Shown: positions 13,931 to 64,000, numbered from the stretch's first letter. The stretch is DNA of 64,000 nucleotides from an uncultured Bacteroidales bacterium (GCA_964411555.1 CAYPLF010000002.1:15334-79333); one strand, 5' to 3'. Notes: generated from the sequence alone by a model not told the origin. Translations and numbers: made by a program.

Positions 13931-14380
13931 ATGTCACCGCTCAAATTGCACGAATCGCCTTCGCTGGATATCTATTCGGCCCTTACGGATACCGAGCTCA
14001 ACCTGCCGTTGGCCTCTTCGAAGGTCAGTGCAGGCTTTCCTTCGCCGGCCAGCGATTTTACCGACGTGTCCATCGACCTGAACAAGGATCTTATCAAGCA
14101 CCCGGCATCCACCTATTTCGGGCGAGTACGGGGTGATTCCATGAAGGATGTGGGTATCTCGGACAACGATTTGTTGGTCATTGATAAAAGCCTGGAACCG
14201 GCCGATGGAAAAATTGCGGTGTGCTTCATCGATGGGGAATTCACAGTAAAACGCATCCAACTGACGAAGGATGGCTGCTGCCTCATGCCGGCCAATCCCG
14301 CCTATCAACCCATTCCGGTGACGAAAGACAATGAATTTGTTATTTGGGGCATCGTGACCCACGTCATCAAATCGTTCTGA
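13931..14380 (+). CDS. umuD: UmuD-like S24 peptidase (translesion polymerase V accessory subunit; no HTH domain)
   Basis: Ala-Gly cleavage site context ([10 protein letters not shown]), GDSM serine nucleophile motif and FTVKRI lysine motif. At 149 aa there is no room for a DNA-binding domain. Confidence 0.85.
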
Positions 14381-14381
14381 C

Positions 14382-15644
14382 ATGTTTGCCCTGGTTGACT
14401 GCAACAACTTCTACGCCTCGTGCGAGCGGGTGTTCCGTCCTGATTTGAACGGGGTGCCCATCGTGGTGCTCTCGAACAACGACGGTTGCGTCATTGCCCG
14501 GTCCAACGAGGCCAAGGCGCTGGGCATCCCCATGGGGGCACCGGCCTTCAAGCACCAGGAAGTGTTTGACAAACACGGTGTCAGGGTGTTTTCGGCCAAC
14601 TTTGCCCTCTACGGCGACATGAGCAACCGGGTGATGTCCATCCTGTCGGGCTATACCCCGAAGATGGAAATCTACAGCATCGATGAGGCTTTTCTCGACT
14701 TTCGCGGATTCGGCTTGTTCGACCTGCAGGAGGTGGGCGCGCGGATGCGGCGGGAGGTGTTGAAATGCACGGGGATTCCTGTTTCTGTGGGGTTTGCACC
14801 TACTAAGGCCCTGTCCAAGGTGGCCAACCGCATTGCCAAGAAATTCCCCGAACGGACGGGTGGTGTGTACATCATCGACAGCGAGGCAAAACGCACCAAG
14901 GCCCTGAAGTGGCTCAGTGTGGACGATGTGTGGGGTATAGGCCGCCAGCACGCCAAGAAACTGGCTTACCTGGGCATCCGCACGGCCTGGGATTTCATCC
15001 AGCTGTCGGATGACTGGGTGAAAAAGCATATGTCCGTGGTGGGCTTGCGCCTCAAGCGCGAACTCGAGGGAGAGCGCACCTTGGAAATGGACGACGTGAA
15101 GCAGAAGCAGAGCATAGCCACCACGCGTTCGTTCGACAAGATGTACACGACCCTGGAAGAACTTAACGAACGTGTGGCCACCTTTGCCGTGACCTGCGCC
15201 GAGAAACTGCGGCAGCAACACAGTTGTTGCAATGCAGTGATGGTGTTCGTCCACACCAACTTTTACCGCGAGGACCTGGACCAATACAGCCGCAGCATGG
15301 TTATCAAGCTGCCTTTTCCCACTTCGTCGAGCATGGAGCTGGCCCGGTTTGCCCGCCAGGCCCTCGAACGCATTTATCGGGAAGGCTACAGCTATAAGAA
15401 AGCGGGAGTCATCCTTATGGACATCACGCCCGAACTGCCTAACCAACTGAATTTGTTTGAGAATACCCACCCGAAGCACAAGGCGCTGATGAAGGCCATC
15501 GACCGCATCAACACTGACTTCGGTGCCCACAAGATTGCGCTGGGCTCGCAAGACCCTGCCCGTCGTTGGAAGATGCGGCAGGAAAAGCTGTCCCCGCGCT
15601 ATACCACCAAACTGGAAGACATCATCACCATCAACACCCACTGA
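14382..15644 (+). CDS. umuC: Y-family DNA polymerase, UmuC-like
   Basis: [34 protein letters not shown] and SIDEAFLD are Y-family catalytic motifs. The start is 1 nt after the umuD stop. Confidence 0.9.
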
Positions 15645-15645
15645 C

Positions 15646-16260
15646 ATGTGCTTCTACTTCAGGGCTTCCAAGAAGGTATTGGAAATGCTCAACGAAAAAT
15701 ACAAGAACCTGGAGGACGAACTCCGCAACGAGTTCGCCAGCGCTGACCACAACTACAACGGCTTCCAGCATCCTTCTACGCCGGTGGTCACGGGTGCCGA
15801 GCCCGAACGCGTGCAGCTGATGAACTGGGGTCTGATTCCCCATTGGGCCAAGGACAGAAGCATCCAGAACAATACCCTCAACGCCAAAATCGAGACGTTG
15901 GCTGAGAAGCCTTCGTTCAGGAACGTGCTGAGCAACCGCTGCCTGGTGTTTGCCGATGGTTTCTACGAATGGCAGTGGCTGGACCCTGCAGGCAAACAGA
16001 AACAGAAATACCTCATCATGCTTCCCGACGAGCAACCGTTCGCCTTCGCCGGCCTCTGGAGCCGCTGGAATGACCCGGCTTCGGGTCTTTCACTCAATAC
16101 TTATACGCTCATTACCCGCCCGGCGGATGAACTCATGAGCCGCATCCACAACAGCAAGTTGCGCATGCCCTGGATCTTGCAACCGCAGGATGAGCAGGCC
16201 TATTTGCGGGGCGGGGCGGTGTTGGATACGGAGCATCGGTTGGTGGCCAGGGCGGTGTAG
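15646..16260 (+). CDS. SOS response-associated peptidase (SRAP / YedK-like abasic-site sensor)
   Basis: Starts MC.. (catalytic Cys2). It also has WGLIPHWAKD, NAKIETL, CLVFADGFYEW and IHNSKLRMPWIL. The start is 1 nt after the umuC stop. The ORF-track extension to 15523 overlaps umuC and is not used. Confidence 0.85.
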   Translation: MCFYFRASKKVLEMLNEKYKNLEDELRNEFASADHNYNGFQHPSTPVVTGAEPERVQLMNWGLIPHWAKDRSIQNNTLNAKIETLAEKPSFRNVLSNRCLVFADGFYEWQWLDPAGKQKQKYLIMLPDEQPFAFAGLWSRWNDPASGLSLNTYTLITRPADELMSRIHNSKLRMPWILQPQDEQAYLRGGAVLDTEHRLVARAV

Positions 16261-37184: not shown

Positions 37185-38306
37185 TCAGGCCAAAGGGAGG
37201 GATATGAAAAATTCGGTACCTTTGCCAACCTCGCTTTTTAACCAGATTTCCCCATTCATCTTTTCGATAAACTCCTTGCACAGGATGAGGCCAAGCCCGG
37301 TGCCGCTTTCCCGGTTCGTGCCTTTGGTGCTGAAGTTGGTATCGATGCGGAACAACTTGGGTATGTCTTGCTCTCTGATGCCTACTCCTGTATCTTTTAC
37401 AGAAAGAATGATCCTGTCCTCCTCCGTTTTTCCGGAAATAGTGATGCTGCCGCCTTCGGGTGTAAACTTGATGGCATTGCTCAGTAGGTTGCGCATGACA
37501 GTGTTCAGCATATTGTCATCGGCCATCACCATGTAGTTCCGTTCGCATTGACACTGAATCTGAATTTTTTTATGAAGCGCCTTGGGTTGTATGGTGGTTT
37601 TGGCCTGATCAACCACAGCTTCAAGGGAAATGGGAGCAATTTTTACGCTGATGGTGTTGGTTTGCAGGCGTGCCCATTCTAACAAGTTGGTCAGCAATTT
37701 GTATCCCTGCGTGGAAGACTCCTTAACCAGCATGGCATATTCCTCCAGGTTCTCATACTGCTTGTTTTGAATATCGGAAATCAAAATATCGCTGATGCCA
37801 ATCAAACCTGAAAACGGATTCTTCAGGTCGTGTGAAATGATGGAAAAGAATTTATCCTTGGTGGCATTCAGCTCCTTGAGCTCTTCAACATAAACCGCAT
37901 TTTGAGCACTGATCCGGTCTTTTTCCCTCAACGACTCAATCATGGAATTCATGGAATGTGACAGGTCACCGGAAAAAGACACCACCTGGTTTAAATCCCC
38001 CTGTGAAATCTGCTGGATTTGCCAGGCCATGTGGCGGAGTTCAGCCTGAAGATTTTTGAAAACATCAGCAAAACTGTTTTTGGTTGGAGGAACCGTATCC
38101 AGCTTTCCATTGGATAAGTCAATGACAAACTGATAATTGTCGTTAAACTGGTTGGTGAACAATTCCAATTCATCCCTGAGGTCGTTTAACGCCTGGCTGT
38201 CCGATTTGGGAATGGATAAGAAATCAACATGTATGGGCCTGCCGCTTTTTGGGGTACGAACAACTTCAGTTAGCCGCTCAATGATGTAACGGTTATTGTT
38301 ATTCAT
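37185..38306 (-). CDS. Soluble sensor histidine kinase (no TM segments, no recognisable input domain)
   Basis: H-box FFSIISHDLKNPF, N-box LLSNAIKFT, and G-boxes DTGVGI and GTGLGL. The first ~190 aa have no hydrophobic helices. The start MNNNNRY at 38306 overlaps the upstream V4R gene by 8 nt. Confidence 0.85.
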   Translation of the reverse strand: MNNNNRYIIERLTEVVRTPKSGRPIHVDFLSIPKSDSQALNDLRDELELFTNQFNDNYQFVIDLSNGKLDTVPPTKNSFADVFKNLQAELRHMAWQIQQISQGDLNQVVSFSGDLSHSMNSMIESLREKDRISAQNAVYVEELKELNATKDKFFSIISHDLKNPFSGLIGISDILISDIQNKQYENLEEYAMLVKESSTQGYKLLTNLLEWARLQTNTISVKIAPISLEAVVDQAKTTIQPKALHKKIQIQCQCERNYMVMADDNMLNTVMRNLLSNAIKFTPEGGSITISGKTEEDRIILSVKDTGVGIREQDIPKLFRIDTNFSTKGTNRESGTGLGLILCKEFIEKMNGEIWLKSEVGKGTEFFISLPLA

Positions 38307-38817
38307 GGGGTAACGGGTTGATGGAAAAACGACAGGTCCGGTCGCCGGTACACCAGCAGTCAATCTCCCTAACCGTGTAAGTGTTGCCGGTATAGACTTC
38401 GAAAACACCTTCAAAAAAGCCTTCATCAAAGTCGCAAACGGTAAAGTTGGTAACGGGCAGGCCTGAGCAATCAAGGTCTTCCGAAATGGTGACGGTAAGG
38501 GAAAGGTTGGTGGCATCCAACTTTTCAACCCGCATGATGCCAATGCCATATTCCAAAAACTTGGCATTTAATTGAGCAATGAATCCGTTTATGGGAAGGC
38601 TTTTGTCCAGCACCTCGGTACAAAAGGCCACACCCGACTGTTTGCCCGCTTTTTTAAACAAACGGCAGGCCGCTTCGTCACCATACGTTTCGCCTAGAAT
38701 ATCCCGCATGCTGTATTGCATCAGCCGGTACATTTCAACACGCGTGTTCATGCCCAGATTCGGGCGCCCTAAGGTTATGTCTCCCAATCGTTTCCAGGAA
38801 AATTGCTCCATGGCCAA
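38299..38817 (-). CDS. V4R (4-vinyl reductase) domain protein, stand-alone small-molecule-binding module
   Basis: 172 aa with C-terminal CDFDEGFFEG....EIDCWCTGDRTCRF, the Cys/Gly pattern I associate with V4R / COG1719 hydrocarbon-binding domains. Confidence 0.65.
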   Translation of the reverse strand: MAMEQFSWKRLGDITLGRPNLGMNTRVEMYRLMQYSMRDILGETYGDEAACRLFKKAGKQSGVAFCTEVLDKSLPINGFIAQLNAKFLEYGIGIMRVEKLDATNLSLTVTISEDLDCSGLPVTNFTVCDFDEGFFEGVFEVYTGNTYTVREIDCWCTGDRTCRFSINPLPHE

Positions 38818-59960: not shown

Positions 59961-59983
59961 ACGCTGTCACATACCTGACAACG

Positions 59984-60036
59984 AACCCACCCTGAAACGA
60001 CTCATACGGGAACTTTCAGGGTGGGTTTGTTGTTTT
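59984..60036 (+). terminator. Intrinsic terminator after gltD
   Basis: 14-bp stem AACCCACCCTGAAA (59984-59997) / TTTCAGGGTGGGTT (60014-60027), followed by TGTTGTTTT. Confidence 0.7.
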
Positions 60037-60108
60037 AAACTGACACAATATTTGTGTATCTATTTCGGGTGTAAACTAAATTTTGTATTATTGTCCAACG
60101 ATTATACC

Positions 60109-63100
60109 ATGAAACACCTTTTCCTTATACTGACGGTTTTTATAGTTGTTGGCCTCAAGGCCGAGAACAGGGTGTTGCATACCCTATACACAAAAGACGA
60201 CGGTTTGTCACAAAACCGGGTTATGGACATTGAACAAGATCAAAAGGGTTTCATGTGGTTTGCCACGTGGGACGGGTTGAACCGTTTTGATGGAAAACAA
60301 TTTCGGATATACAAAGGTCTTCCCGGCGATCCAGAAGGGCCTGACAACAACCGTTTTTTGTCGGTCAAGGCCGACGCCTTCGGATACTTATGGCTATTGA
60401 CAGGGAATGGAGACGTTCATCGATTCAATCCCGAAACAGAAAAATTCCAACGACTATCTTACAATCCGGCTGTCAGATCGGGTATGATTAATCATTCAAT
60501 CAATAGCATCCGGATATTAAAGGAAAACAAGGTTGCGTTATTGTCCATGTGGGGGTGTTATTTGATTCGTATCAACCCGGATGCATCCATTGGAAAATGC
60601 ATTTTCATGAGCAGGGAAAACGGCAAACTGGCCGGTAACAGGGTCGTTGATGTGGATGTTGACGGGAAAAGCGATGTTTGGTTTATCACTTCAACCGGTG
60701 TCACAAATTACAATTACACCTATAACCGTACTCAGCATTTTTTCAACCATCAAAATAACAGGGAGGCTTTCAGGTGCTTACATAAAAGCGGAGGTAGGCT
60801 GTATTTCGGTACGGAGTCCGGAAAGGTGTGGTTCAAAAATGGAGGCGACAATTCATTCAAAGGCAACCAGATTTCAGCATCTTCCCCTGTCGTCGCAATC
60901 AATTCACTACCAGGGAATAAACTAATGCTTGCTACACAGGGTGATGGCTTATATATCGTCAATGCCAATCTGCAAATCTTGAGACACATGACAACAGCCA
61001 CCAACCCGGAATTGGGAAACAACAACGTTCATGCGTTATTACCTGATAATGATGGCTTGATTTGGTTGGACGTTGAAGCAAGCAATTTTGTCTATTTCGA
61101 CCCAAATAAAGACAAGTTGTTCCAGTGTATCAATCCGTCAGCGAAGATACTACCTGCCTCAAACCGTTCGAATATTCGAATAATTGAAGGCAAGGGTGAA
61201 TACATTTGGTTATACTCAAATAGCAGAGGGCTCTTTGCCTGTAACCGGGAAAGCAAAAAAATTCAATCCATCAACATCATGGATAATGCTCTGGGTGCTG
61301 AAAACCTGGGTTTGATGACCGATGCCATGATGGATAGGGATGGAAACGTATGGATCAGTTCAGGAGAACCGCGGTTGGAAAAAATAACAATGGAAGATGA
61401 AAAATTTATGTTTACATCAGTAGCTTCCATTAAACCCCAATTGGATGGATCCGAAGTTCGAACAGTGTTTGAGGATAAGCAGAAACGAATTTGGGTCTGT
61501 GATAAGGAAGGAAAGATTCAATTAATGGATGAAAACCGGCGTACTCTTGGATGGTTGAAGTCTGACGGAACCCTTTCAAAAACAGTCCATCAAACAGACA
61601 TGATGGTATACGATATGATTCAGGACAAGAAAGGGCGCATTTGGATGGCCTGCAAGGGAAAGGGAGTACTTATGTTGCAGGAAAAGAATGGTCTGACTCC
61701 CACTTTTTCAATCCGCCATTTTAACCGAGATAAACCAACAAATCAACTCAGTTCCACTTTGTGCTATGCCTTACTGGAAGACGCAAATGAACAGATTTGG
61801 GTGGGTACATTCGGAGGAGGCCTCAATCTGATAAAAGAAACCAACGATACGTTCAGCGTATTTAATAAATGGAATGGATTGACAACGTATCCGTTGGATA
61901 CCTTTCCCAACATTCGGGATTTGACTGTAGATTTAAAGGGTATCATTTGGGTGGCAACCGATAATGGATTGGTCGCTTTTGATTCACATGTGACTAACCC
62001 AACTAAACTATCGTTTTTAACTTACCGCAGAAACGGACAGATCCCGGGTAGCTTACGAACCAACGATGTACATTGTATCTACGTAGACAGACAAAACAAC
62101 CGCTGGTTTGGTACGTTTGGCGGAGGATTGAATGTGATCAGCGGCGATGTTGAACCGACTAAATCCACTCAATTCCGTTCTTTTACGGAAAAAGACGGCT
62201 TGCCCAGCAATATAATTCTAAGTATTGAAGAAGATTTTCATGGTTTTCTGTGGCTTTTTTCAGAAAACAGCATTACCCGATTTGACACCAAAACACATGC
62301 TACAGATGTGTACAACAAGGATTATGGACTTGATCCTGTGATGTTTGCCGAATCACCCAGCTTGGTTTCACATACGGGTGACATGTATGCAGGAACCATG
62401 AAAGGTTATTATCGGTTTACCCCGTCTACAGTAAAGAAGGCTGGTTTCACCTCCCCCTTATTCTTCACCGGTCTCTATTTATTTGATAAAGAAATTACAC
62501 TCGACGAATCCTTTGGTATTCTGAACAAAAAAATAGACATGGCTGATAAGATTGTCCTGAAAAGAGAACAGTCTGTTTTCAGCCTTGAGTTTGCAGCCCT
62601 TGATTTTAGAGCCCCGGGTAATATACAGTATGCTTACAAACTAGAACCTGTTGACAACGATTGGGTAGCTCTAAACAAAGTAAACCGGGTTACATTTTCG
62701 AGCCTTACTCCGGGAGAGTATACGCTGGTTATCAAATCCACCAACAGTGAAGGGGTGTGGATGAACAACGAAAGACGATTGAAAATTGTGGTCAAACCCT
62801 CGGCGTGGCAAACGGGGTGGGCCATCACCCTATATGCAGCAATCGGTCTCATTATGATGTTGTTCATACACAGGAGAATAATGGAAAGGCTCAAATCCAA
62901 GAGTAAGGTGATGGTGGATAAGAAAGTGGTTGAAGCCAAAAAACAATTCTATTCGGATATGACGCAAGAGCTGCGTATTCCCTTGATGCTGGTTGAGGAT
63001 CCGGTTCAACAGATAGCCGGAGACCCGGGATTGTCTGCCGATTCCAGGAATAATTTGTCCATCATACAGCGTAACATTGACCGCATATCGCATTTGGTCA

Positions 63101-64000
63101 ATCGGATTCTTGACTACCAAAAAAATGCCAACAGGAAGATGGTGTTGATGGTTGAAGAAATTCCTATTGGAGAGGTATGCCAAAAACTTGCGGATCAATT
63201 CAGTACAATCGCCCAGGAACGAGGCATTCGCTTTTTGTTCAATGACGAATCAAATGGTGTTGAGGTATATCTGGATAAAGAAAAATTTGAGACCATACTG
63301 CACATCCTTTTGACCAACGCCATTAAATACACAAAAGGAGACAGCATGGTTTCTTTACATGTGTATCTTGACAATCAGGATGTCGTGGTCAAAGTGGATG
63401 ATGAAGGGATAGGGATTTCAAAAGAAAAACTCGTTTATTTATTTGATAAACAGGAACTAACAGATGAAACAGCCGGTGATCGTCAAATGGGTATTGGACT
63501 GGGTTTGGTCAAAGATTTGGTGGAATTGCATGGAGGTCGTATTCTTGTCAGAAGTCAGGAAGGAGAGGGTACTTCATTTGAGTTGCATTTTATACCCGGA
63601 AAAGATCATTTCTCCGATACGGGTGTCGTGTTTGTCCAGCCGGAGTATTACCCGGGTGAACTAAGCAACAATGAGCAAATCAAATGCATGGATGAGATGC
63701 AAAAGACAGTATCGACTGAGCAGTATCTGTTCGTAGTAGTGGATAATCCGTTGAGGTCTGAGTTGTCAATTGGCACATATTTATCTCATCAATTCAGGGT
63801 TGCAATTATCAGGAACACGCCCATGACATTGAGTGAGATAGAAGGTTTAATGCCCGATTTTGTCATCATTGACCATGAAGTTTCCTCCGATGGAGGGCAG
63901 GGTCTGATCAGTCAATTAAAAGGAAATGAACGCACTTGTCACATTCCAATAATACTGGTTGCAGAAAAAACAGCTGAAGCAATCAATCCGACCAAGTTGC
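60109..64000 (+). CDS. Hybrid two-component system sensor (propeller repeats + Y_Y_Y + TM + HisKA-like + HATPase + receiver); 3' end outside the window
   Basis: This frame is not in the supplied ORF track because it has no stop inside the window. My hand translation from ATG 60109 is stop-free to 64000. It has signal/TM MKHLFLILTVFIVVGL, repeated two-component-regulator-propeller units (GLSQN.V..I.QD..GFMWFAT..GLNRFDG), Y_Y_Y (IQYAYKLEPVDNDW) and TM WAITLYAAIGLIMMLFI. An H-box-like FYSDMTQELRIPL, N-box LLTNAIKYT, G-boxes DDEGIGI and GIGLGL, and a receiver (..DFVIIDHEV..HIPIILVAEK) follow. Confidence 0.85.
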   Translation, partial: MKHLFLILTVFIVVGLKAENRVLHTLYTKDDGLSQNRVMDIEQDQKGFMWFATWDGLNRFDGKQFRIYKGLPGDPEGPDNNRFLSVKADAFGYLWLLTGNGDVHRFNPETEKFQRLSYNPAVRSGMINHSINSIRILKENKVALLSMWGCYLIRINPDASIGKCIFMSRENGKLAGNRVVDVDVDGKSDVWFITSTGVTNYNYTYNRTQHFFNHQNNREAFRCLHKSGGRLYFGTESGKVWFKNGGDNSFKGNQISASSPVVAINSLPGNKLMLATQGDGLYIVNANLQILRHMTTATNPELGNNNVHALLPDNDGLIWLDVEASNFVYFDPNKDKLFQCINPSAKILPASNRSNIRIIEGKGEYIWLYSNSRGLFACNRESKKIQSINIMDNALGAENLGLMTDAMMDRDGNVWISSGEPRLEKITMEDEKFMFTSVASIKPQLDGSEVRTVFEDKQKRIWVCDKEGKIQLMDENRRTLGWLKSDGTLSKTVHQTDMMVYDMIQDKKGRIWMACKGKGVLMLQEKNGLTPTFSIRHFNRDKPTNQLSSTLCYALLEDANEQIWVGTFGGGLNLIKETNDTFSVFNKWNGLTTYPLDTFPNIRDLTVDLKGIIWVATDNGLVAFDSHVTNPTKLSFLTYRRNGQIPGSLRTNDVHCIYVDRQNNRWFGTFGGGLNVISGDVEPTKSTQFRSFTEKDGLPSNIILSIEEDFHGFLWLFSENSITRFDTKTHATDVYNKDYGLDPVMFAESPSLVSHTGDMYAGTMKGYYRFTPSTVKKAGFTSPLFFTGLYLFDKEITLDESFGILNKKIDMADKIVLKREQSVFSLEFAALDFRAPGNIQYAYKLEPVDNDWVALNKVNRVTFSSLTPGEYTLVIKSTNSEGVWMNNERRLKIVVKPSAWQTGWAITLYAAIGLIMMLFIHRRIMERLKSKSKVMVDKKVVEAKKQFYSDMTQELRIPLMLVEDPVQQIAGDPGLSADSRNNLSIIQRNIDRISHLVNRILDYQKNANRKMVLMVEEIPIGEVCQKLADQFSTIAQERGIRFLFNDESNGVEVYLDKEKFETILHILLTNAIKYTKGDSMVSLHVYLDNQDVVVKVDDEGIGISKEKLVYLFDKQELTDETAGDRQMGIGLGLVKDLVELHGGRILVRSQEGEGTSFELHFIPGKDHFSDTGVVFVQPEYYPGELSNNEQIKCMDEMQKTVSTEQYLFVVVDNPLRSELSIGTYLSHQFRVAIIRNTPMTLSEIEGLMPDFVIIDHEVSSDGGQGLISQLKGNERTCHIPIILVAEKTAEAINPTKL

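Follow-up and report, generated by a model that had tools for sequence, protein, structure and literature searches.

A Bacteroidales hybrid two-component sensor without a phospho-acceptor histidine: a candidate phosphorylation-independent regulator

In this work, we characterized a hybrid two-component sensor (HTCS) encoded at the end of the window, the 64,000-nucleotide stretch of DNA from an uncultured Bacteroidales bacterium that was analysed. The protein belongs to a clade of eight lineages in which the phospho-acceptor His is replaced, by Gln in the window and by Arg in seven relatives. We consider it probable (roughly 0.6) that the gene encodes a functional, phosphorylation-independent HTCS, a membrane-spanning regulator of the AraC type in which both kinase and receiver are pseudo-enzymes. 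Because residues for phosphate transfer have been lost while selection has kept the gene intact, the protein probably signals via shape change alone. Pseudo-kinases and pseudo-receivers are each already known kinds; here they are combined in one HTCS. Besides the His, the clade has lost the kinase-specific N-box Asn, the Thr at H+4, the second acidic (Mg-binding) residue of the receiver and both residues of the Y-T switch. These losses support the central proposal of an earlier, sequence-only reading, namely that a canonical intramolecular His-Asp relay would probably be impossible.

Gene and domain architecture

The frame that opens at the ATG at 60109 runs free of stops to the end of the window on translation, as had been stated, and covers 1,297 codons; the gene was absent from the ORF list solely because its frame continues past that end. 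Its predicted full length is 1,464 aa, the last 167 of which were supplied by P0139, a sequence with 100% identity to the final 101 residues encoded in the window. The typical HTCS layout described earlier was recovered (Table 1). Pfam matched Reg_prop repeats (109.5 bits), Y_Y_Y (59.6 bits, aa 833-896), HisKA (29.0 bits against a cut-off of 26.9) and HATPase_c, and the transmembrane helix was read from the translation. The C-terminus past the window, about which the sequence-only reading had asked, is an AraC-type HTH (PF12833), carried by P0139 and by every clade member. When the window protein's own REC-HTH portion was modelled with AlphaFold2, the receiver took a normal fold with high confidence (pLDDT 91.7, pTM 0.86), and AraC DNA-binding domains match the model at a TM of ~0.85.

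Table 1. Features of the HTCS gene and its upstream region (window coordinates).
Feature	Position	Strand	Basis
gltD intrinsic terminator: 18-bp-arm hairpin, then TTTGTTGTTTT	59980..60036	+	RNA fold
Conserved upstream block, promoter-like element: TTTG 60082-60085, TATTATTG 60086-60093	60061..60108	+	alignment
HTCS coding sequence, codons 1-1297 of predicted 1,464 (exceeds window)	60109..64000	+	translation, Pfam, P0139
Periplasmic sensor, Reg_prop beta-propeller repeats + Y_Y_Y, aa 21-896	60169..62796	+	Pfam
Transmembrane helix, ~aa 899-921, AWQTGWAITLYAAIGLIMMLFIH	62803..62871	+	hydrophobic run in translation, between Y_Y_Y and HisKA
DHp / HisKA domain without phospho-acceptor His, aa 943-1006	62935..63126	+	Pfam HisKA 29.0 bits; HK853 alignment
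Codon CAA, Gln953, phospho-acceptor His position	62965..62967	+	read directly; register from PDB and family alignments
Codon for Ile957 at H+4	62977..62979	+	Thr position in other HTCSs
CA / HATPase_c, aa 1056-1161	63274..63591	+	Pfam 70.5 bits
Codon for Ile1066 in place of first N-box Asn	63304..63306	+	family alignment
Degenerate receiver (pseudo-receiver), aa 1205-1297; window ends after beta-4	63721..64000	+	Response_reg below cut-off; residue table; AlphaFold2
Codons for Asp1212-Asn1213 where the acidic pair Glu-Asp belongs	63742..63747	+	family alignment
Codon GAC, Asp1255, retained phospho-acceptor Asp	63871..63873	+	direct reading
Codons for Cys1277-His1278-Ile1279-Pro1280, receiver half of C/SHIP-D-K latch	63937..63948	+	invariant in clade and sister
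Codon GCA, Ala1285, in place of beta-4 switch Thr	63961..63963	+	family alignment

Catalytic residues and the latch

Direct reading bore out the Gln at the phospho-acceptor position, and its register was found to be correct, since fysdmtQELRIPL aligned to fianisHELRTPL of the Thermotoga kinase HK853 in a phmmer comparison with the PDB. The HisKA domain of an HTCS normally carries the acceptor His; here the domain is present, but with Gln953 or, in the relatives, Arg. A recognisable HisKA from which the phosphorylatable His is missing makes the window protein a pseudo-histidine kinase. In a 121-sequence family alignment, the Q953 column holds His in 113 of the 114 sequences outside the clade. 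Additionally, reference genomes provided 78 related HTCS loci in which 80 H-boxes were recognised, every one of them with His, so the Gln or Arg H-box is not a product of chance.

The single base between CAA and a His codon would fit a sequencing error or a private mutation of one strain, an explanation that has next to no chance of being right. CAA and the identical H-box DNA recur in an independent low-coverage contig of another assembly (L095), the acceptor His is missing from seven further lineages, and about ten other catalytic positions have changed in concert. The explanation, both forms of which the sequence-only reading had wanted checked, was thus refuted. The proximity of CAA to a His codon is real, but the relatives point to a less direct path, from His (CAC) to Arg (CGN) to Gln (CAA). 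Their acceptor codons are CGC, CGC, CGG, CGT, CGC, CGA and CGC, all Arg, and a single transition separates the window's CAA from CGA. This indicates that Arg is the clade state and Gln a secondary change. HisKA phosphatase activity requires Thr or Asn at H+4 (PMC8292422); Thr occupies this position in 113 of 114 other HTCSs vs. I/V/A/T/V/I/V in the clade, where it is lost in six of seven members.

The ATP-binding boxes, at first described as intact, are so only in part. G1 (DEGIG) and the Asn that binds Mg (N1070) remain, and the N-box, F-box and G2 are altered: the F-box no longer has its second aromatic, and G2 has Gln for its first Gly and Met for its Thr. The first N-box Asn, present in 114 of 114 other HTCSs, is Ile in all eight clade members, and I1066 matches the first Asn of HK853 'vllNllNNgvkys' in the phmmer alignment. 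ATP binding by this HATPase_c domain is possible and catalysis unlikely, to judge from these residues. In the kinase-dead bacteriophytochrome DrBphP, loss of the N-box Asn pairing with the H+1 acid likewise accompanies kinase loss; DrBphP keeps its His and acts as a phosphatase via the H+4 residue, whereas the window HTCS has neither the His nor the H+4 Thr (PMC8292422).

The divergence of the receiver was also as first reported, with VVVDN for the usual VVEDN, HEVS for MMMP and ILVAEK for ILLTAK (Thr to Ala), and its Response_reg score of 14.0 bits falls under the Pfam cut-off of 30.2. Of the five active-site residues of an HTCS receiver (acidic pair, Asp, Thr/Ser and Lys), the window protein has Asn for the second acidic residue and Ala for the Thr; the Lys and Asp1255 are present, the latter, already noted as kept, being invariant across all sequences examined. 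His-containing HTCSs have Asp as the second acidic residue without exception (113 of 113), and six of eight clade members have lost it, P0005 and L096 being the only ones to keep it. The beta-4 switch residue is Thr or Ser in all 113 and Ala in all eight. The beta-5 switch aromatic is replaced by Leu or Val in all clade members where it is known, D+1 to D+4 are rewritten, and the beta-5 Lys is kept in seven of eight members (present in P0139, replaced in L096). These substitutions, in a domain modelled with a receiver fold, are those of a pseudo-receiver. Atypical receivers often retain the Asp for structural charge interactions (PMC12632262).

HTCS receivers hold the DNA-binding domain shut via a C/SHIP-D-K latch that phosphorylation normally releases, and this latch occurs in ~74% of Bacteroides HTCSs (PMC11253607, PMC13292587); it was defined crystallographically for BT4124 (PMC13292587). 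The latch of the window protein is complete, with C-H-I-P encoded in the window and the Asp and Lys found in P0139, and all of its residues are kept in every clade member. An intact latch, the invariant Asp1255 and a beta-5 Lys-Pro in seven of eight members would suit a membrane-anchored response regulator without a kinase of its own, phosphorylated in trans by a different HTCS, some other kinase or acetyl phosphate. Pairing between HTCS kinases and receivers has been described as relaxed in its specificity (PMC11253607), and such a route is most plausible in the P0005 and L096 lineages, where the acidic pair is full. Even so, we judge it unlikely. The Mg-binding residue is lost in the other six lineages, D+1 to D+4 are rewritten, L096 lacks the Lys, and the H+4 Thr for a matching phosphatase is gone. 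Moreover, with Ala for the switch Thr throughout and Leu or Val for the beta-5 aromatic, a phosphorylated Asp would still lack the usual Y-T relay.

The DHp domain carries the densest clade-specific fixed changes (7 in ~70 residues). Such changes in a dimerisation domain under strong purifying selection would be compatible with a modulator of other HTCSs, which heterodimerises with or titrates a canonical HTCS instead of acting as a stand-alone regulator, and there are documented cases of pseudo-histidine kinases that have become part of other networks (PMC4211667, PMC12632262). We find this very unlikely here, given that a pure kinase-modulator would need neither the AraC HTH nor the latch, both of which are conserved, and that a partner HTCS was not linked at any clade locus looked at. 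Under the reading of a phosphorylation-independent regulator, the clade proteins are presumably not phosphorylated at all.

The His-less clade, selection and genomic neighbourhood

In the tree, the His-less sequences form a monophyletic clade that lies within the His-containing orthologues, and a profile search leaves a discrete score gap at its edge (at least 2,526 vs. at most 1,982 bits). This HTCS lineage is small and rare; the best identity to sequences labelled Bacteroides in our searches was at most ~31%. We compared the clade with 113 His-containing HTCSs at the 121 columns where conservation among the latter reaches 93% or more. No clade member departs from the conserved residue in 90 of these columns, and all members do in 12, among them the columns of the acceptor His, the beta-4 Thr, D+3/D+4 and the first N-box Asn. 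The clade-wide changes fall in 11 of 71 cytoplasmic columns vs. one of 50 periplasmic columns, so that 49 of the 50 universally conserved columns of the sensor have none. With its Gln, the missing first Gly of G2 and a DHp evolving 1.65 times faster, the window lineage is a little more derived than the sister lineages, and its protein may work less well than those carrying Arg.

Every domain is under purifying selection, with dN/dS of 0.07-0.17. The values come from P0001 vs. P0002 (dS 0.32), the one close pair that gives an unsaturated ratio: 0.17 overall, 0.17 for the periplasmic sensor, 0.10 for DHp, 0.14 for CA, 0.07 for REC and 0.12 for HTH (Fisher p 6e-5 to 5e-10 for the last four; 5e-68 overall). 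An intact ORF of ~1,465-1,502 codons is found in all eight lineages despite saturated synonymous sites, and in a neutral simulation the ORF stayed open in 0 of 200 runs. Arg at the acceptor position has been maintained across all four synonymous codons. The HTCS evolves ~3.3 times faster than its sister, fastest in REC (9.8x) and HTH (8.9x). Since its branch ratio is 3.25 vs. 0.73 for gltD in the same genomes, the acceleration is gene-specific and does not reflect a fast genome; it could represent partial relaxation instead of re-optimisation.

A strong terminator lies between gltD and the HTCS gene. Its hairpin (-31.8 kcal/mol, z = -6.4, equalled by 0 of 200 shuffles) is present in five of six aligned clade loci, being deleted in that of P0003, and the stems of P0005 and P0001 show compensatory changes relative to the window. 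The upstream block is almost invariant over six clade loci, and TATTATTG ends 15 nt ahead of the HTCS ATG. The core, TTTG-TAnnnTTG, is common to this block and the first gene of the sister-clade islets, and we take it to resemble the Bacteroidetes sigma-A -7 box (TAnnTTTG).

The downstream gene, about which the sequence-only reading had also asked, encodes an OPT-family transporter. It is the sole conserved operon partner, missing or fragmentary in four of eight lineages. Among the window ORFs scanned there was no susC/susD pair, in keeping with the first impression of the locus, and no glycan-degrading enzyme; the flanks of the seven relatives, covered to as much as 10 kb, had neither. His-containing orthologues share the gltD-to-OPT/guaA slot, amid genes for pectinesterase/GH88, pectate lyase, GH28 and cupin, none of which occurs in the sequence available around the eight His-less loci; the sister-clade loci do have pectinases, with no susC/susD in the stretch seen. 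The position beside nitrogen-assimilation genes was correctly reported but is inherited synteny instead of a sign of a nitrogen role.

Absence of the adjacent pectinase genes at all eight loci, acceleration of the HTCS but not of gltD, decay or loss of OPT in several lineages and additional degradation in the window lineage are what would be expected of an orphaned relic heading for loss, left with nothing to regulate and with its catalytic residues the first casualties of relaxed selection. This seems quite unlikely in view of the open frames and of the low dN/dS in each domain, the supposedly dead ones included. Furthermore, the replacements are fixed instead of scattered (Arg in seven, Ile in eight and Ala in eight lineages, with 35 clade-specific invariant residues), and the latch and HTH are preserved.

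Proposed mechanism and related systems

A functional HTCS that works without phosphorylation could have arisen as follows, in an order of events that we infer. The ancestor would have been a pectin-islet HTCS between gltD and the OPT transporter gene. Arg may have replaced the acceptor His in the stem lineage of a small Bacteroidales clade, to be replaced in turn by Gln much later in the window lineage. The N-box Asn, the H+4 phosphatase Thr, the receiver Mg-binding Asp and the Thr/aromatic switch pair would have been lost, and the flanking pectinase genes deleted. Selection would have kept the periplasmic sensor, the DHp/CA/REC scaffold, the receiver Asp, the C/SHIP-D-K latch and the HTH. Ligand binding in the periplasm would then send a mechanical signal via the membrane helix and DHp bundle to the tethered receiver, whose changed docking would open or close the latch, which would thus be under allosteric control. 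On this proposal, conformation alone would set the output, much as it does in membrane-bound one-component regulators. In ToxR-like regulators of that kind, a single polypeptide directly links periplasmic sensing to a DNA-binding domain in the cytoplasm without phosphotransfer. Their architecture and origin are unrelated to those of the window HTCS, in which the coupling would use a fossil kinase-receiver scaffold.

The Bacteroides pectin-locus HTCSs BT4111 and BT4124 (homogalacturonan PUL) share with the window protein the sensor-TM-HisKA-HATPase_c-receiver-AraC HTH layout and the same latch between receiver and DNA-binding domain (PMC11253607, PMC13292587). The likeness extends to the locus, in that the nearest His-containing orthologues of the window HTCS sit among pectin-degrading genes. 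Unlike BT4111 and BT4124, the window HTCS lacks the His, the N-box Asn, the H+4 Thr and the Y-T switch pair, its receiver active site is degenerate, and it has no adjoining glycan-degrading or susC/susD genes.

Approximately 0.9% of HisKA domains lack the His (PMC12632262). One example is Caulobacter DivL, a HisKA/HATPase_c protein without the acceptor His that is likewise retained for signalling (PMC4211667). DivL (4q20) was among the PDB sequence matches of the window protein in the phmmer search. Its acceptor position is Tyr, vs. Arg or Gln in the clade. DivL stands alone and reads the state of a separate response regulator, whereas in the window protein a single chain joins the pseudo-kinase to a pseudo-receiver and a DNA-binding output of its own. 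Similarly, the pseudo-receivers NblR, BldM, GlnR and others are soluble (PMC12632262), whereas that of the window protein is attached to a membrane-spanning sensor as well as to a pseudo-kinase and keeps the HTCS-specific inhibitory latch.

An open frame for an HTCS without an acceptor histidine

Glycan-responsive regulation in Bacteroidota is mainly the work of hybrid two-component systems (HTCSs), and in the current model, intramolecular His-to-Asp transfer frees a latch between the receiver and the DNA-binding domain. Translation of the HTCS frame 3′ of gltD gave 1,297 stop-free codons, which are missing from the ORF list only because the frame runs off the window. Pfam matches comprised Reg_prop repeats, Y_Y_Y, HATPase_c (the CA domain) and a HisKA domain (DHp) barely over threshold; Response_reg stayed below threshold (14.0 bits vs. 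a cut-off of 30.2). No exact DNA match to extend the window was found in metagenome contigs. An exhaustive protein search returned P0139, a protein with 100% identity to the final 101 window residues plus 167 further residues, giving a full-length HTCS of 1,464 aa. P0139 is carried on L095 (ENA ERZ2648158), a contig from a noisy, low-coverage (1.4x) assembly of a strain almost identical to the window's, with ~45 single-base deletions in homopolymers as the main difference. These deletions break the HTCS of L095 into three called genes, an artefact of assembly that might be taken for a pseudogene. An AlphaFold2 model of the window's own receiver (REC) and AraC HTH sequence (pLDDT 91.7, pTM 0.86) showed confident receiver and DNA-binding folds, and matched single domains only in a Foldseek search of the PDB. 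In the model of P0139, alpha-4 between beta-4 and beta-5 was not predicted (pLDDT about 60), and the crystal structure of BT4124R is also poorly ordered in the matching region.

The Gln codon at the acceptor position and the phospho-Asp codon that had been read from the sequence alone are correct, and the proposed H-box register was borne out by phmmer against the PDB, in which fysdmtQELRIPL falls under fianisHELRTPL of HK853. Seven further lineages also lack the acceptor His and form, with the window, a clade of eight. All are from metagenome assemblies of uncultured Bacteroidales, and the window's own source has Paludibacter-like neighbours. The six nearest database relatives (54-65% identity, about 1,465-1,472 aa, AraC HTH present) carry Arg in its place, as does L096, an eighth lineage reached via its neighbouring gltD. 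In a 121-sequence family alignment, 113 of the 114 non-clade sequences have His in the acceptor column. A nearby His in another register was ruled out by the PDB and family alignments; the sole clade-specific gained His, H1065, lies in the CA N-box helix, outside the DHp. That the window's Gln codon is a sequencing error is refuted, with virtually no probability left to it, by the same CAA codon in L095, and the absence of His from the seven other lineages likewise disposes of a strain-private mutation.

Related reference-genome HTCS loci have His in 80 of 80 recognised H-boxes, and no His-less member was seen among the best 80 loci of GTDB species representatives. About 0.9% of HisKA domains overall lack the acceptor His (PMC12632262). 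Targeted full-text searches yielded no description of an HTCS without it, and the mechanistic HTCS papers PMC11253607 and PMC13292587 make no mention of such proteins. The acceptor codon is CAC in the His-containing sister clade (P0007-P0012). Arg members use CGC (four times), CGG, CGT and CGA, a spread over all four synonymous variants which indicates that Arg has been held. The window's CAA is one transition away from CGA, and as judged from the codons, the position likely changed from His to Arg to Gln. Arg has also arisen independently at the acceptor position of two unrelated hybrid kinases, P0091 (1,891 aa; PAS domains, no hit to an AraC domain) and P0193 (1,238 aa). With Ile at H+4 as well (VARELRIPL), P0091 shares both changes with the clade, and pseudo-kinases may repeatedly arise by a route in which His gives way to Arg and the H+4 Thr is lost.

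Coordinates of the features discussed (window positions unless a locus handle precedes them)
Feature	Position	Strand	Remark
HTCS open frame	60109-64000	+
Acceptor codon	62965-62967	+	CAA
Phospho-Asp codon	63871-63873	+	GAC
Clade-specific sensor residues	aa 411-429 (about 61339-61395); aa 76-79	+
Poorly modelled receiver segment	P0139 model residues 91-106 (window aa about 1287-1302)
Y-family DNA polymerase	14382-15644	+	IMS, IMS_C, DUF4113
426-aa ORF antisense to the polymerase	14367-15647	-	no family match
Sensor histidine kinase	37185-38567	-	460 aa; HisKA + HATPase_c
Clade HTCS of L096	L096:11463-15971
OPT fragment in the locus of P0003	L092:6161-6514		117 aa
Sister-clade T9SS-tagged proteins	L006:14576-19288; L007:6233-10945; L008:18859-23601

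Selection on a single clade

A neighbour-joining tree groups the His-less sequences together at the end of a long stem; they fall within the His-containing orthologues and are sister to P0007-P0012, and P0005, from genome GCA_964438045.1, splits off first among them. A discrete score gap separated the clade from everything else in a profile search, and clustering at 50% left one representative for all of it. Estimates of dN/dS were taken from the clade members P0001 and P0002 (dS 0.32), the only informative pair since synonymous sites are saturated in the others (dS >1 or undefined). Each of the four cytoplasmic modules is non-neutral (Fisher p 6e-5 to 5e-10). A relic in slow decay appears an improbable explanation: the ORF is intact in 8/8 lineages, and neutral simulation at comparable divergence kept it open in 0 of 200 runs, with a mean of 16.5 internal stops. 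Moreover, 35 residues are invariant and specific to the clade, most densely in the DHp, such that its replacements are fixed rather than scattered. Faster change than in the sister clade counts in favor of such a relic. The branch ratio is 3.25 for the HTCS vs. 0.73 for gltD of the same genomes, so the acceleration is specific to the HTCS gene, whether through partial relaxation, re-optimisation or a mix of the two. Conservation under selection is nonetheless shown for the scaffold, latch, sensor and HTH.

Selection and relative rate by module of the clade HTCS
Module	dN/dS, P0001 vs. P0002	Rate vs. sister clade
All	0.17	3.3x
Sensor	0.17	2.4x
DHp	0.10	6.2x
CA	0.14	4.3x
REC	0.07	9.8x
HTH	0.12	8.9x

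Fixed residues specific to the clade also occur in the periplasmic sensor, where one blade carries the charged residues D411, E420, R422 and E429. This cluster includes a change to Arg where 113 of 114 other HTCSs have Gly, and it may mark an altered ligand site.

Phosphotransfer residues, the latch and a possible docking switch

The ATP-binding boxes had been described as looking intact in the sequence-only reading, which holds for the Mg-binding Asn and G1 but not for the first N-box Asn (Ile in 8/8 clade members), the F-box aromatic or the G2 Thr, all of which are lost; the window has also lost the first G2 Gly. The receiver deviations it listed are real, with Asp-Asn for Glu-Asp, HEVS for MMMP and Ala for the beta-4 Thr. 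The 113 His-containing HTCSs share 121 columns conserved to 93% or more. Ninety of these are fully retained in the clade and 12 are altered in every member, including the phospho-His, first N-box Asn, receiver D+3 and D+4 (offsets from the phospho-Asp) and the beta-4 Thr. Clade-wide alteration affects 11 of 71 conserved cytoplasmic columns vs. 1 of 50 periplasmic ones. The H+4 Thr, required for HisKA phosphatase activity (PMC8292422), is lost in 6/7 members, the second acidic residue of the receiver in 6/8, the Y-T switch's beta-5 aromatic wherever its identity is known, and the beta-5 Lys in L096 only. The residues on which autophosphorylation, phosphotransfer, phosphatase activity and the receiver phospho-switch depend are gone. 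All members keep the H+1 Glu, Mg-binding Asn, G1, phospho-Asp and AraC HTH, together with every residue of the C/SHIP-D-K latch, which by crystallography and mutagenesis keeps the HTCS DNA-binding domain shut until receiver phosphorylation (PMC11253607, PMC13292587).

L096 (ENA ERZ27249138, a 183-kb contig) was missed by both protein searches. It is further diverged, with Arg for the beta-5 Lys (ITRPF) and His for the H+3 Arg (RELH), and its acidic pair is still Glu-Asp. The gltD of this lineage is found on at least seven contigs, so the lineage is not rare in its samples.

In architecture and latch, the clade belongs to the HTCSs. It has neither the acceptor His nor the receiver quintet, two catalytic features that define them, and it fits the published definitions of a pseudo-histidine kinase as well as of a pseudo-receiver (PMC12632262). 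In the literature examined, we found no published description of the two co-evolving within one polypeptide, of which the clade would be a concrete case. It is also a natural separation-of-function variant, in which the phosphotransfer apparatus has been removed and the sensor, scaffold, latch and HTH are still selected.

From these residue patterns we infer that the clade HTCS signals without phosphorylation. Periplasmic ligand binding would act mechanically, by way of the DHp bundle, on the tethered receiver and then on the latch. One form of this, to which we give a probability of only about 0.15, is that the kinase-receiver pair is a purely mechanical switch, with the Arg (Gln in the window) at the old His position docking in a retained acidic pocket of the receiver. 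Asp1255, the first acidic residue and an acidic residue found at D+2 in the clade alone would make up this pocket, and in touching it Arg/Gln953 would imitate the phosphotransfer complex. Shifts of the DHp helices driven by the ligand would then make or break this contact and thereby open or close the C/SHIP-D-K latch. Phosphorylation of the retained Asp in trans is just as unlikely as docking; it would account for the phospho-Asp kept in all members, and the losses in the receiver phospho-switch weigh against it. A role as modulator of other HTCSs leaves the selected HTH and latch to be explained, and we consider it somewhat less probable even than slow decay. If the docking switch were true, the clade would be a natural experiment demonstrating that HTCSs can signal with no phosphoryl transfer at all, and the step controlling the latch would be receiver docking rather than phosphate chemistry. 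Knowledge of how the latch is controlled in the clade would show the actual contribution of the phosphorelay, and these proteins offer a direct handle on control of the HTCS latch.

Locus and ancestry

The order of genes is dapF, an aminotransferase, GS-III, gltB, gltD, a terminator and the HTCS, followed in L095 by an OPT-family transporter gene that starts 4 nt past the HTCS stop. The terminator after gltD is strong (-31.8 kcal/mol, z = -6.4) with compensatory changes in relatives, and the HTCS ATG is preceded at 15 nt by a conserved TTTG-TAnnnTTG element; given this terminator and promoter-like element, the HTCS is probably transcribed apart from gltBD. A role in nitrogen regulation, as adjacency to glnA-gltBD might imply, is unsupported, since pectin-linked orthologues share the adjacency and the terminator and separate promoter-like element intervene. 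In the seven relatives, gltD precedes the HTCS wherever the contig reaches the upstream gene, the 3′ side holds OPT, an OPT fragment or a convergent guaA, and no glycan-degrading genes are present in the up to 10 kb covered around the HTCS. OPT follows the HTCS by 4-10 nt in four lineages, is reduced to a fragment in the locus of P0003, and is absent 3′ of the HTCS in three others (L003, L094, L096), so it is being lost independently of the HTCS. Missing or fragmentary in 4/8 lineages, OPT is unlikely to be the sole HTCS target.

In His-containing orthologues, the same slot holds pectinesterase/GH88, pectate lyase, GH28, a cupin and a 1,570-aa T9SS-tagged protein. As this islet occurs in both the sister group and the outgroup, parsimony makes the ancestor a regulator in a pectin islet whose enzyme genes were later lost from the His-less clade. 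Synteny therefore records a stepwise history, from pectin-islet regulator through enzyme-gene loss to a rewired orphan regulator. The tagged proteins of three sister-clade islets (about 1,570-1,580 aa) carry RicinB-lectin, fn3 and T9SS sorting domains, and no susC/susD is visible in the islet stretch covered. This suggests pectin use by secreted enzymes in a non-PUL style under HTCS control.

The other window ORFs scanned are housekeeping genes. A conventional sensor histidine kinase is encoded 21 kb upstream of the HTCS, and the ORF of nearly the same extent on the strand opposite the Y-family DNA polymerase is probably a shadow ORF.
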